A stretch of DNA of 64,000 nucleotides. It comes from an uncultured Veillonellaceae bacterium. Its GTDB lineage: Bacteria > Bacillota > Negativicutes > JARBTT01. The position numbers were made by a program, and so were the translations under genes. Below are positions 28,926 through 32,401 of this stretch, one piece after another. How positions within the stretch are numbered: position 1 is the stretch's first letter; each line of letters begins with the position of its first letter. The DNA lies in contig CAWDTA010000005.1 in assembly GCA_963805085.1 (NCBI GenBank), positions 672,001 to 736,000 on the forward strand, in the 5' to 3' direction. Under the pieces are notes generated by a model. It worked only from the letters and a program-made list of their open reading frames with translations. It made no database searches and was not told the DNA's origin.

Positions 28926-29350
28926 GTGTCCATTTTATTAGCATTGCTGGGTGCAATGGGAAAAAGTATCATGTTATTTGTTGCCTATATTACACAAAAT
29001 ACATTTCCCTTGCCGTTATCAGAAAAAGAGGAACAAGTTTATCTAACTAAACTTGCCGAAGGCGATGAATCGGCAAAAAGTGTACTTATTGAGCGAAATT
29101 TACGATTGGTCGCACATATCGTTAAAAAGTTTGATAACACTGGCGAAGACATAGACGATCTTATATCAATTGGGACGATTGGATTAATCAAAGCAATCAA
29201 TACCTTTGATACCAATAAAAAAATACGTCTTGCTACCTATGCAGCAAGATGTATTGAAAATGAAATTTTGATGCACCTGCGTAGTACCAGACGTGTGCGC
29301 TCGGAAGTGAGTCTATATGATCCAATTGGCATTGATAAAGAAGGTAATGA
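28926..29350 (+). CDS. sigK: Pro-sigmaK, 5' segment (interrupted gene)
   Basis: GTG after GGAGGT; 20-aa pro-sequence then [64 protein letters not shown]; homology stops at the att core. Confidence 0.95.
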
Positions 29351-29365
29351 ATTTACATTTATTGT
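29345..29365. repeat. attL of the skin element (core plus inner arm)
   Basis: TAATGA-ATTTACATTTATTGT; the arm is a 12/15 inverted match to the attR inner arm. Confidence 0.85.
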
Positions 29366-29428
29366 AATTTACTGTATTGTGTATAAACAAAATCAATATC
29401 TTATTATAACTTAATATAGAAAAAAATG

Positions 29429-29446
29429 AAAGGCAGTCCTGCCTTT
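29429..29446 (-). terminator. Hairpin at the recombinase stop, between convergent ORFs
   Basis: AAAGGCAG-TC-CTGCCTTT. Confidence 0.55.
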
Positions 29447-31014
29447 TAATTTGAGAGTAGTGGATGAATGACAAGGGTGAATTCATCTTTTTTTTGCGCT
29501 TTTTCTTTGCGATACGTCGTGTGATTAAGGACCGTCTTTAAAAGTTGATTTTTCTTAGCTGGATTATCTGAGTTATAGTATATTTCAAGCAAGTCTTCTA
29601 ATTTAGGTATAATATCAGTTTTAACTTTTTCATTAGACAAAGATGTTGATACTAGTTTTTCTGTTTCTTCAATTGCAGTTTCAGTATCTTTTATTTTACG
29701 GGCTATTTTTTTAGAACGATCTAAGAAGGTAGCCGTATCATAAATATTTTTTTCTAGCAAGTCATGTAATCGATCTTTTTGCATATGAAGTGTTTTTGAT
29801 TCTTTTTTTAGATTTTCTAGAGCTTTTGCTTTGATATCTATAATTGTTTTGTCATTGTTTTGCGGTTCATTGCTCCATTGTGCTTTGTATTTTGTTAACC
29901 AGAGTGATAAGCCAGCTAATAATTTTTGTTCAACGTAGGTGAAGCGTGAGCTTTTATTAGGGCAATTTCTGTTGTAACAAACTATGTGGGCAGCTTGCTT
30001 TACATAAGGACGATATACCATGCTGGCCCCACACATATCGCACTTTACTAAACCAGCTAGGGGATTTGTTATTCGAGTAAGCTGTTGATAGGGTGGATGA
30101 TACTTTTTTTTTATCATTGCTTGAACTTCTTTAAATTCTTCCATAGATACGTAAGGTTCATGTGTGTTTGGTATTAAGATTTGTTCATCAAGGGGGCGTG
30201 TTTTAACCTCACGGCGTTTATTTGGATTCGTAGACTTCTTCGTTTCTTTTTTTCTCCACGCATTTACACCTGCGTATGCTGGATTTTTGAGCATATTCAG
30301 AACACTTGCACTCGTCCAGTTAATACCAGTATAAGAAGCGTAACCAAGTTGGTTTAATTCATTGGCTATCTTACTAGATCCTATATGTTCCGAGCGGTAT
30401 AATTGCCAAATTAATTCAGTTGGCTCACGTTGCTCTGAATTTTTAACTAAATATCGCCGTCCGAGTTTGTTATCATATTCAATCAAGTAGCCATAAGGGG
30501 GATAAGTTCCTAAATAATTTCCTTCATCGATAGAACGTAAGCGTCCTGATTGTAACCGACGATTGATTATTTTTAATTCTTTCCGTGCCATAAATGCTTC
30601 AAACTCTGTATATTCTTCATCAAACTCATCATTTAAGTCATAAATTTTGCGTGGAGTAACAATTTTTGTCTTAGCAGTTTTAAAGGTTTCTAGAATTAAA
30701 CCTTGATCTTGCATTCCGCCGCGACCTAAACGGTCAATATCCATACAGAGTACAGACTTCCAAATTCCAGATTCAATTTCCTTTAGAAGCTCAAGCATTT
30801 GCGGGCGATGGATGATACTTTCACCAGAAACGACTTCTTCAAATATTTTAGTAGCGTTAATGCTATAATCTTTCGCGAGTTTAACTAATGCTTTGCGATG
30901 CTTGGCAAGCGTTTCACCCTCACCACGCGTCTCAGCTTCTTGGTCTTCACGTGATTTACGAAGATAGAAGCAAGCGGGTTCTAAGGCTGTCGTAGAAATA
31001 GATTTTTTTTGCAT
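29446..31014 (-). CDS. Large serine recombinase (about 522 aa), skin integrase/excisase
   Basis: Catalytic FYLRKSRED, DIDRLGRG, recombinase domain, zinc ribbon CDMCG...CYNRNC, coiled coil; ATG 31014 with RBS GAGGTG (the ORF-track start at 31455 is likely spurious). Confidence 0.93.
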   Translation of the reverse strand: MQKKSISTTALEPACFYLRKSREDQEAETRGEGETLAKHRKALVKLAKDYSINATKIFEEVVSGESIIHRPQMLELLKEIESGIWKSVLCMDIDRLGRGGMQDQGLILETFKTAKTKIVTPRKIYDLNDEFDEEYTEFEAFMARKELKIINRRLQSGRLRSIDEGNYLGTYPPYGYLIEYDNKLGRRYLVKNSEQREPTELIWQLYRSEHIGSSKIANELNQLGYASYTGINWTSASVLNMLKNPAYAGVNAWRKKETKKSTNPNKRREVKTRPLDEQILIPNTHEPYVSMEEFKEVQAMIKKKYHPPYQQLTRITNPLAGLVKCDMCGASMVYRPYVKQAAHIVCYNRNCPNKSSRFTYVEQKLLAGLSLWLTKYKAQWSNEPQNNDKTIIDIKAKALENLKKESKTLHMQKDRLHDLLEKNIYDTATFLDRSKKIARKIKDTETAIEETEKLVSTSLSNEKVKTDIIPKLEDLLEIYYNSDNPAKKNQLLKTVLNHTTYRKEKAQKKDEFTLVIHPLLSN

Positions 31015-31219
31015 ATACTTTAATATCACCTCAATATGCGAATTGTGTTCGAAGCAAACACAAAATCTTTCTTTTTTAATAAATTCTAAAATGAAAGGTT
31101 TTAGAATTAAAGCTCCCCAAATTAATAAAAATAAGTATTTGATTGTAAAATAAATCATATAAAATAGGGCAGTCCTCGATGATAGATCGCATACACATTC
31201 TAGTGAGGAGTGTGATTCG

Positions 31220-31411
31220 ATGGCGAAGCCAGATAGAGAACCAGATAAAACGATTAAAATAGGGAGTACAACTATACATTTTTTTGCACCGTTACCTATA
31301 ACAGAGGAGGAGTTACAAAAAAGATTAGATAAAGTACAGGAGGCAAGTTGGGAGTGCTGGAACTCTTTATCGGAGGAGGAACAATTAGAACTAAATAGCA
31401 AATACAAGTAA
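31220..31411 (+). CDS. Small 63-aa protein, candidate recombination directionality factor
   Basis: RBS GAGGAG; divergent from the recombinase inside the element; function inferred from position only. Confidence 0.65.
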   Translation: MAKPDREPDKTIKIGSTTIHFFAPLPITEEELQKRLDKVQEASWECWNSLSEEEQLELNSKYK

Positions 31412-31538
31412 AAAAATCCTATGTGAAAACAGTGGAGTGAGTGGTAACCGTACATTCAGTAGCTAGCAAGATAGAGCATGCTTTTATTTTTATTATCTTT
31501 TCAGTTTTTTATATGGTAGAATAATAAAATCAATACGA

Positions 31539-31567
31539 AAAACCGCTCTCATTTAGAGGGCGGTTTT
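31539..31567 (+). terminator. Terminator-like hairpin between the 63-aa gene and the cargo gene
   Basis: AAAACCGCTCTC / GAGGGCGGTTTT. Confidence 0.75.
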
Positions 31568-31639
31568 AATTTAAAAGGATTTGGTTCATATTATAAAAAC
31601 GAGTATTGATTAAGAGTGATAAACTGGAGGTATTTATCT

Positions 31640-32107
31640 ATGGATTTCACATTGGAAACTCCTGCGAATATTAACGAATTGGTTAAGCAGGCGAGTGATA
31701 AAACAAGTTGGCGTAACAGGTTAGCAGCAGTGGAGGAACTAAGTAAATGGAAGTGCGACGAATCTATTGATATAGTTACAAAGCTAGCTACTAGTGATTT
31801 AGTTTTCAAAGTAAAAGAACGGGCTTTTGAAGTTGCCCAAGCTTTTGGGGTAGAAAAGAATGGAAAACCGATTTATTTAGATAAAAAGTCTAAAGTAAGT
31901 CCAATAAAGTTTATTAATAAAAAAATCTTTAAAGTGGCAAGCCATCTAAAAATAGATATTGATGATTTTAATATGGATGAATTCAAAGCAACTTTTCAAA
32001 AAATGTATCCAGAAGAATATGATGTCTGCGAATATGAAAATCATAATAAGTTTGATGATTGGCTAAAAGATCTAGTTAAATCAAAGGTTAGAAGACGGAA
32101 CAGATAA
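31640..32107 (+). CDS. HEAT-repeat-like protein (155 aa), skin cargo
   Basis: RBS GGAGG; WRNRLAAVEEL...DLVFKVKERAF helical HEAT-like pattern. Confidence 0.7.
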   Translation: MDFTLETPANINELVKQASDKTSWRNRLAAVEELSKWKCDESIDIVTKLATSDLVFKVKERAFEVAQAFGVEKNGKPIYLDKKSKVSPIKFINKKIFKVASHLKIDIDDFNMDEFKATFQKMYPEEYDVCEYENHNKFDDWLKDLVKSKVRRRNR

Positions 32108-32133
32108 ACAGTAAGTGTTAATGAAATAACACT
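32108..32133. repeat. attR of the skin element
   Basis: ACAGTAAGTGTTAAT-GA-AATAACACT; includes the AGTGTTA/TAACACT inverted repeat centred on GA (32123-32124). Confidence 0.85.
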
Positions 32134-32401
32134 AATAGATGTTCTTGGAACTGATTCTGATGTTGTAGCAGAATCGGTTGAAACACAGTGTGAGAATGAA
32201 CGATTAACAAATCAAATCAATACATTGAATCAGCGGGAAAAATTGGTGCTTAATATGCGTTTTGGTATACCAGATGGCGTTCGTAAAACACAACGTGATA
32301 TTGCAAAGATTTTAGGAATATCACGTAGCTATGTATCAAGAATTGAGAAAAAGGCCGTCACAAAAATCGGTAAAAGTTTATATGCGGAAGAAAAGAAGTA
32401 A
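32120..32401 (+). CDS. sigK: Pro-sigmaK, 3' segment (93 codons, no start of its own; not in the ORF track)
   Basis: NEITLIDVLGTD...REKLVLNMRFG...KTQRDIAKILGISRSYVSRIEKKA, the SigK region 4 HTH. Confidence 0.95.
   Translation, partial: NEITLIDVLGTDSDVVAESVETQCENERLTNQINTLNQREKLVLNMRFGIPDGVRKTQRDIAKILGISRSYVSRIEKKAVTKIGKSLYAEEKK

Follow-up and report, generated by a model that had tools for sequence, protein, structure and literature searches.

How does a bacterium whose sigK gene is cut in two make sigmaK? We considered this question for a stretch of 64,000 nucleotides (hereafter the window; contig CAWDTA010000005.1 of assembly GCA_963805085.1, positions 672,001 to 736,000) from an uncultured Veillonellaceae bacterium of the class Negativicutes, in which an insert separates a 5' part from a 3' part of sigK. 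The locus is probably a skin-type (sigK-intervening) element, here pared down to a recombination unit with one cargo gene, whose excision in the mother cell would be timed by a factor of 63 amino acids (aa). All positions are those of the window, and its features are listed in Table 1.

The anatomy of the locus is read directly from the DNA. The similarity to SigK ends at the Asn-Glu pair at 29346-29351 and restarts at 32120, as a sequence-only reading of the window had proposed. The N-terminal part (plus strand, up to 29351) matches positions 2-141 of the TIGR02846 spore_sigmaK model with 231.8 bits; its open frame begins at 28893, and the likely true start is the GTG at 28926, following GGAGGT. 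The C-terminal part (32120-32398, plus strand) matches positions 140-226 of the same model with 110.5 bits. Each half alone scores below the cut-off of 298.65, and the plain sum of the two scores lies above it. The Pfam domain Sigma70_r2 is found in the N-terminal part and Sigma70_r4 in the C-terminal part. As to structure, the sequence-only reading is confirmed as far as it could be examined: the 3' part (32120-32401) has no start codon of its own, the heptamer TAATGAA occurs at both junctions (29345-29351 and 32119-32125), 2,774 bp lie between the junctions, and rejoining would yield an in-frame product of 233 codons. The last is recounted here as 142+91 codons from the GTG at 28926, in place of 140+93. 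The product presumably begins with a pro-sequence of 20 aa, the length being taken by analogy with Bacillus subtilis.

The two parts are collinear with an intact sigK. In genome G004, the nearest relative with an uninterrupted gene (92-93% identical), both halves map back to back and overlap by the six Asn-Glu bases; with 344.6 bits, the intact G004 protein exceeds the SigK cut-off of 298.65. Searches of the window's genome (83% complete) gave no second sigK, the sole other match being a 40%-identical paralogue. The 5' part differs between two Massilibacillus genomes, that of the window and a same-genus one, by one nonsynonymous and six synonymous substitutions (ratio of nonsynonymous to synonymous rates, dN/dS, 0.046), and for both halves dN/dS between the two species is at most 0.05. 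The pattern GCACA-N15/16-CCATA.AAT.A was observed upstream of sigK in 15 of 16 relatives tried, and was not located in one. We take the promoter-like site in the window to be that of a mother-cell sigma factor, from the B. subtilis consensus sequences.

A split gene may also arise when an assembler makes a chimeric join, here one that put foreign DNA into sigK. The assembly is in five contigs, is 83% complete and has an estimated contamination of 6%, which leaves some room for such an error. Nevertheless, an artefact is extremely improbable. The independent same-genus assembly G001 has the same split, with an insert of 2,779 bp; contigs from four metagenome runs on soil and groundwater, belonging to four studies, bridge both attL and attR, the attachment sites at the two junctions; and 21 further genomes of the class carry homologous elements with sequenced junctions at the same codon. 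A 215-base skip within the recombinase gene, seen in one contig with 20 bases on one side, was disregarded. The Massilibacillus genome with the same locus, together with LpxC in the window's own genome, also supports the assignment to a diderm Negativicute made in the sequence-only reading.

To place the split in the class, 401 genomes were searched for the 5' part of sigK (E <= 1e-48) and sorted by the end of the match and the length of the open frame; for genomes with the halves of sigK on different contigs the sorting is indirect. The gene was found in 71 genomes and is interrupted in 41 of these. It is split at the codon seen here in 29 genomes, at a second site in ten and in other ways in two (G021 and G172), and is intact in 30. 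Both halves lie on one contig in 23 of the same-codon elements, which could thus be measured. The sizes are 2.77 kb (the two Massilibacillus elements), 3.0, 3.4, 3.65, 3.7, 4.1 and 4.5 kb, and range up to 58 kb, the element in the window being the smallest.

What do these elements share? Three genes make up the insert, as the sequence-only reading had it: a large serine recombinase, a 63-aa open reading frame (ORF) and a 155-aa ORF. The recombinase and an ORF of 60-76 aa were common to all seven elements first compared, and it is here that the sequence-only reading needs amendment. Its 63-aa ORF is present as stated; rather than anonymous filler, it is the best candidate for the recombination directionality factor of the element, as judged from co-occurrence with the recombinase and from predicted binding. 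The family has the pattern ..YDATY..G.TVVHVVAPPPMTEEE....EF...AW..WNSL..EERL.LN. A profile of it matches 34 of the 401 genomes, once in each. Of the 29 genomes split at this codon, 25 have a match, and in the assemblies of the other four the halves are on separate contigs or reach the end of a contig; of the ten second-site genomes, three have one (G048, G059 and G104). Among the 30 genomes with an intact sigK there is one, a partial match with a stop codon. The small ORF lies between the sigK halves and on the sigK strand in 23/23 elements with both ends on one contig. It adjoins the recombinase gene divergently in about 12 of 30 loci and is farther off in the rest. A contig scan with one narrow peptide pattern gave only five small-ORF loci.

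The partial match among the intact genomes is at G156:C1:1964084-1972648, where the remains of a small ORF, with a TGA codon, stand 8 kb downstream of sigK; this may be the remnant of a lost element.

The small-ORF family has not been annotated in the collections that were searched. One protein collection holds 86 members, none of which has a Pfam domain and all of which are 'hypothetical' wherever they are named; an exhaustive search of 1.84 billion proteins gave 178 representatives at 50% identity. The ORF has no match in Pfam, NCBIfam or PHROGs, and none in phage records. A profile of 58 members compared with all Protein Data Bank (PDB) chains gave a best E-value of 0.55, to unrelated proteins. 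The PDB chains include fusions of the SPbeta integrase with SprB (YotN), so the comparison covers SprB, to which no sequence kinship was found.

The predicted complex of the two proteins points the same way. Residues 190-522 of the recombinase were folded with the small ORF and with three controls, giving a median score of 0.83 for the pair and 0.00 for the best control. A score of 0.83 is reached by 58 of 80 solved complexes and by 2 of 110 mismatched pairs; these counts are rough, because our own alignments were used for the fold. At least 89% of the contacts agree between runs, and the predicted local distance difference test (pLDDT) value of the partner is at least 83. The predicted interface on the recombinase comprises residues 360-384, 466-497 and 509-522. 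In the model, residues 17-22 of the small protein form a strand that pairs with a conserved strand near the C-terminus of the recombinase (512-517), and the helices of the small protein contact 360-384 and 466-497, at both ends of the coiled-coil insertion. Since the PDB contains no sequence relative of the small ORF, the prediction is not copied from SprB. The model thus supports binding of the small protein at the base of the coiled coil. According to a published report, known directionality factors are all predicted to bind this region, at the second DNA-binding domain and the coiled coil (PMC12286644).

If the small protein triggers excision, its own expression has to precede that of sigmaK. 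The majority of the 30 small-ORF loci have, in the same register, the pattern GGG..GTCC-N14-CATA.A.A, followed by GAGGTGA and the start codon; a variant with GGACAA or AGACAA closer to CATA occurs in about five of the 30, the classes being assigned by eye. The -10-like block of the small ORF resembles that upstream of spoIIID in the same genome, and CATA-type blocks, we assume, resemble mother-cell promoters. To regard GTCC/GGAC as a SpoIIID box is, on our part, speculation. The small ORF may well be read by an early mother-cell sigma factor, because sigmaK cannot be made first, and CD1234 of Clostridioides difficile and skr of B. subtilis offer precedents. Spaced GTCC-N14-CATA pairs were rejected as a general promoter type of this genome, since there is no enrichment (72 matches, compared with 55-87 at other spacings). 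A sigma-70 scan gave 13 sites against a shuffled mean of 14.4, that is, no excess. The 9-mer GGCAGTCCT occurs both at 29421-29429, at the terminator hairpin of the recombinase gene, and at 31168-31176, within the -35-like block of the small ORF; this may be due to chance.

The attachment sites were read at both junctions of the 23 same-codon elements, and the motifs in their arms were scored out of nine positions. The element arm of attR has ACAGATAA at the fixed position -26 in 22 of the 23; the best match to ACAGATAAA falls at -26 in all 23 and scores at least 8/9 in 22. The element arm of attL has the reverse complement of ACAGATAA at +14 in 20/23 elements (score at least 7/9). The symmetry of the arm motifs is centred on the GA of the Glu codon, and in five elements (G054, G078, G080, G116, G220) attL and attR differ at the base after this GA. 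From the symmetry and these five elements we infer a crossover at GA, which fits because the next base is where the two sites differ. The sigK arm GATAAA is 5 bp closer to the centre than the element-arm motif, and such an offset is expected between the attB and attP half-sites of large serine integrases. Apart from the attL element arm in Massilibacillus, described below, the att architecture of the 23 elements is typical of large serine recombinases.

In G054 (loci L080 and L096) both element arms are changed jointly, to ATGTCTAAA in attR and TTTAGACGT in attL. G054 thus offers a naturally occurring specificity variant of the att motif, with arms that co-vary.

Several observations weigh against the reading of the window element that we prefer. 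The usual TTATCTGT motif is missing from its attL element arm at 29365-29373. The motif is absent from this arm in both Massilibacillus genomes, where the sequence in register scores 3/9; the 39-nt arm is 84.6% identical between the two species, compared with 96-100% for the rest of the locus and 40/40 identical positions for the attR element arm. Since TTATCTGT is missing, one recombinase subunit may bind attL weakly, and the degenerate arm may mean either weaker excision or a lost ability to re-integrate. The contigs of the four DNA runs contain the integrated form only, with neither an excised junction nor a circle, though contigs drop rare forms. At the promoter of the small ORF, the -35-like GTCC block matches neither the sigmaE nor the sigmaK -35 consensus as we understand them, and out of 16 genome matches to GTCC-N14-CATAYA only that of the small ORF is upstream of an ORF. 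The dN/dS of the small ORF is 0.44 between the two species, which is uninformative as it derives from six substitutions. The kin genomes are not independent, and the counts given above overstate the support accordingly. Finally, family searches for spoIVA and spoIIIAA in the 83%-complete assembly of the window found neither.

Some of these points could indicate an immobilised and decaying insert, in which the degenerate attL arm bars efficient excision, sigK is becoming a pseudogene, and sporulation is being lost or has been lost. No other stretch of the locus changes as fast as the arm without the motif that 20 of 23 elements keep (at least 7/9), the searches gave neither spoIVA nor spoIIIAA, and spoIIID is interrupted too. 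We nevertheless consider decay unlikely. Purifying selection acts on the sigK halves, the recombinase gene and the 155-aa ORF, all of them intact, with dN/dS at most 0.09 between the two species. As to spoIVA, it is full length in four of the five relatives searched, the sister genome included, and G036 has only a C-terminal fragment under the cut-off. The sister's spoIVA locus, flanks included, has no counterpart in the window's assembly; because the whole locus is missing with its flanks, we read the absence as an assembly gap and not as loss of the gene.

The interruption of spoIIID is at C2:196221-205427 (L077) of the same genome, where model positions 1-40 and 29-80 are about 8.9 kb apart. 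The insert carries its own serine recombinase of 518 aa, 24% identical to that of the sigK element, a PtuA/PtuB-like ATPase-HNH pair (E 1.5e-61 and 3e-29, both under the cut-off) and other cargo. Because spoIIID is split as well, the mother-cell programme of the host may need two excisions. In G036, a Negativicute with a sigK element, spoIIID is also in two parts, about 26 kb apart (G036:C13:19013-45373); it is intact in three other relatives.

The recombinase is complete and SpoIVCA-like. It contains the Pfam domains PF00239 (Resolvase, residues 16-166) and PF07508 (Recombinase, 201-303), and PF13408 (Zn_ribbon_recom, 318-364) scores 24.8 bits, slightly below the cut-off of 25.3. Ser21, the catalytic serine of RKSRED, and four cysteines are invariant across 67 sequences. 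The closest PHROGs family is phrog_95, integrase (E 7.6e-94), and the closest solved chain is the SPbeta integrase (7.6e-38, over residues 14-502). Membership in the XisF family (NF041201) was rejected: this is the best NCBIfam match (E 1.9e-26), but its 93 bits fall far short of the 375-bit cut-off. Negativicutes, Bacilli and Clostridia all have homologues at 54-66% identity. For the two Massilibacillus recombinases, dN/dS is 0.089 at a synonymous divergence (dS) of 0.16. The end of the gene is 97 bases from attL, the edge of the element. The regions upstream of the recombinase genes, compared by eye, have no common motif.

Could the element be a mobile one that still moves, a portable recombinase-small ORF pair with a preference for the sigK sequence, excised for transfer and not for the timing of sporulation? 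The same pair is found outside sigK, in a dpaB/spoVFB element and next to a truncated mntH; a second sigK site is used in ten genomes; cargo varies widely within one genus, and sizes run from 2.8 to 58 kb across the class. On the other hand, the window element contains no transfer, replication or phage genes, and the small ORF is in no phage record. The absence of phage genes had been claimed in the sequence-only reading and agrees with a PHROGs scan of the three element proteins, which matches the recombinase only, as an integrase; a prophage or defective prophage was rejected for want of structural, replication or lysis genes among the three. The two Massilibacillus species have the element in common, at an identical site, with a divergence like that of the flanks. 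Furthermore, the recombinases group by host family. In a tree of 29 sequences (26 same-site and three from other classes; G152 was left out, its sequence being cut by a contig end) there are ten changes of family label, which is the minimum, and the mean after shuffling is 17.8, with as few as ten in 0 of 200 shuffles; this test demonstrates clustering only. Such clustering fits long residence with turnover of cargo, not frequent transfer, and taken together with the purifying selection on the recombinase (dN/dS 0.089) it is consistent with the description of the element as domesticated in the sequence-only reading. A still-mobile element therefore seems to us improbable. It overlaps with the mother-cell excision that we prefer, as it would allow for an arrival by transfer and long residence thereafter.

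The third gene, the 155-aa ORF, is cargo. Its similarity to HEAT_2 (E 6.8e-4) is under the cut-off, and its neighbours in the Atlas are small 'hypothetical / HEAT_2' clusters of Bacillota. It is a real gene, as is evident from a dN/dS of 0.051 between the two species at dS 0.29. Of the seven elements compared, only those of the two Massilibacillus genomes contain it. The hairpin between the small ORF and the 155-aa ORF (-18.4 kcal/mol, z -5.45) was missed by a consensus terminator scan. Cargo ORFs rich in Cys, Pro and Met were observed in two other sigK elements, at 963-1418 of L036 (151 aa) and 4656-5210 of L039 (184 aa).

Table 1. Features of the interrupted sigK locus in the window.
Feature	Position	Strand	Remarks
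sigK promoter-like site	28869-28898	+	GCACA (28869-28873), 16-nt spacer, CATATGATA (28890-28898)
sigK 5' part (spoIVCB equivalent)	28926-29351	+	142 codons from GTG; ribosome-binding site (RBS) GGAGGT 28914-28919
attL	29325-29376		sigK arm GATAAA, core TAATGAA 29345-29351, inferred crossover GA 29349-29350
terminator-like hairpin	29429-29446	-	directly 3' of the recombinase stop codon; 7-pair stem, then T run
large serine recombinase (SpoIVCA-like)	29449-31014 (with stop 29446-31014)	-	522 aa, convergent with the sigK 5' part
promoter-like motif	31167-31197	+	GGGCAGTCC (31167-31175), 14 nt, CATACACA (31190-31197); RBS GAGGAG 31205-31210
63-aa acidic ORF (isoelectric point, pI, 4.9)	31220-31411	+	candidate recombination directionality factor
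terminator-like hairpin	31539-31567	+	12-bp hairpin, then UUUUAAUUU; between the small ORF and the 155-aa ORF
155-aa ORF	31640-32107	+	cargo; weak HEAT-repeat likeness
attR	32095-32145		element arm ACAGATAAA 32100-32108, core TAATGAA 32119-32125, sigK arm
sigK 3' part (spoIIIC equivalent)	32120-32401	+	93 codons including the duplicated Asn-Glu, plus stop

Other arrangements of sigK and of the recombinase-small ORF pair were found in the same genomes and beyond. The second interruption site in sigK is near residue 127/128, and two of the inserts there are about 38 kb (G019:C1:819413-858217) and 25 kb (G180:C1:1606934-1632866) long. In G021 (C1:209624-221998), sigK continues 57 residues beyond the usual site. 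The first 55 residues of the 3' part are repeated 6 kb further on, and the small ORF is found 12 kb downstream, an arrangement that could reflect nesting or rearrangement of the element. In another class of Bacillota, locus L117 (G468:C77, 6789-10137) has the pair, with a recombinase 47% identical to that of the window, directly behind dpaB/spoVFB; this gene follows an intact dpaA and is interrupted at position 137 of its 187-position model. The arrangement is reportedly similar to the published vfbin case. At L116 (G467:C12, 9892-12499) the pair adjoins the C-terminal half (positions 226-437) of an MntH/Nramp gene, and this may be an element in a gene unrelated to sporulation.

The mechanism that we propose for the window element is as follows. 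The 2,774-bp insert would keep sigK as two dead pieces during vegetative growth and in the forespore. In the mother cell the recombinase would join attL with attR at the GA dinucleotide of the Glu codon; the insert would be lost as a circle, leaving the in-frame pro-sigmaK gene of 233 codons. The acidic 63-aa protein would set the direction and the timing of excision through contacts with the recombinase at the junction between the second DNA-binding domain and the coiled coil and at the C-terminal tail. The gene of this small protein would have a conserved promoter to itself, read most likely by an early mother-cell sigma factor and possibly with SpoIIID. The forespore, that is, germ-line, copy would retain the element, which would therefore be inherited vertically. 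What the sequences show is the anatomy of the locus, its collinearity with intact sigK, the conserved recombinase-small ORF pair and the att architecture. Excision during sporulation is proposed by homology with the known systems; the cell type in which it would occur, what the small protein does and which sigma factor acts at its promoter are proposals too.

The sequence-only reading had left open whether such an element had been described. The kind is in print, small skins and Negativicutes included, and the window element belongs to it. According to Galperin et al. 2022 (10.1101/2022.02.25.481979), sigK is split in 15 genomes by skins of 2.6-48 kb with 2-67 proteins, the smallest size and protein count being 2.6 kb and two; they occur in Bacilli, Clostridia, Negativicutes (Pelosinus fermentans is named) and Tissierellia, always with spoIVCA at the edge. 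The small skins of that report are like the one in the window, with sigK in spoIVCB-like and spoIIIC-like parts and a SpoIVCA-like recombinase at the edge. It gives spoIVCA as the only gene common to all skins, whereas the small ORF is present in 23/23 of the same-site Negativicutes elements considered here. In the passages on skins that were consulted, there is no mention of a conserved small ORF, and no link between Massilibacillus and sigK or spoIVCA was found among the papers listed in the search; the supplements of Galperin et al., in particular Figure 2, Table S7 and Figure S4 of that work, lay outside the search and may bear on both points. What is new here is the conserved small ORF as a probable directionality factor, its promoter motif, the att consensus and the census.

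The best-studied skins are close in design. In skinCd of C. difficile, the recombinase CD1231 is described as constitutive and CD1234, an acidic protein of 72 aa under the control of sigmaE and SpoIIID, as binding the recombinase and being required for excision only (PMC5025042). The likeness to the window lies in the large serine recombinase and in a small acidic protein encoded in the element with a promoter of its own, which for CD1234 (pI 5.5) is a mother-cell promoter with a short leader (PMC5025042). The differences are the size of skinCd, 14.6 kb with 19 genes, and a C. difficile sigmaK without a pro-sequence, compared with apparently 20 residues in the window. The skinCd and skinBs elements are reported to use different regions of sigK (PMC6957869). 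In skinBs of B. subtilis, excision in the mother cell restores pro-sigmaK, as proposed for the window element, and involves SpoIVCA and the 64-aa factor Skr under sigmaE; it differs in being a defective prophage of 48 kb, with skr upstream of spoIVCA on the same strand and overlapping it by 101 nt (PMC6957869). Unlike skr, the small ORF of the window is divergent from the recombinase gene, and in some relatives it is kilobases away.

Two systems in other target genes are also similar. The gin element of Bacillus cereus ATCC 10987, which intervenes in gerE, is not a prophage; a serine recombinase, GirC, and the small factor GirX rebuild a sporulation gene, and a short att core is shared within an imperfect inverted repeat (PMC5595907). 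It differs from the window element in its target and in having three recombinase genes and regulator-like genes (PMC5595907). From the fdxN element of heterocyst-forming cyanobacteria, a large serine recombinase, XisF, frees a gene when the cell differentiates terminally, much as is proposed here; this system belongs to another phylum and has another target gene.

So far, sites of the recombinase-small ORF cassette number two in sigK and one in dpaB/spoVFB. We put forward, as a tentative and rather doubtful extension, that the small ORF represents an unannotated family of directionality factors forming a two-gene excision cassette with SpoIVCA-type recombinases, that the cassette interrupts several sporulation genes across classes of Bacillota, and that its Massilibacillus version works one way. 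The Massilibacillus element may be excisable while its circle, owing to the lost attL arm motif, is unable to re-integrate, which would make it a captive one-way switch. With spoIIID split as well, the mother-cell programme would include two ordered excisions.

On the role proposed for the small protein, the minimal DNA for a programmed rejoining of a gene would be two att sites, one recombinase and one factor of 63 aa. The analysis also puts forward a testable candidate for the directionality factor that a widespread family of recombinases has been missing. Pairs of integrases and their cognate factors are reportedly sought for reversible genome editing (PMC12286644), and the small-ORF family provides dozens of natural variants whose attL and attR sequences are known, including one pair with co-varying arms. 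For the class as a whole, the interruption of sigK in 41 of the 71 sigK-bearing genomes sampled suggests that an interrupted sigK is commoner than an intact one in spore-forming Negativicutes.

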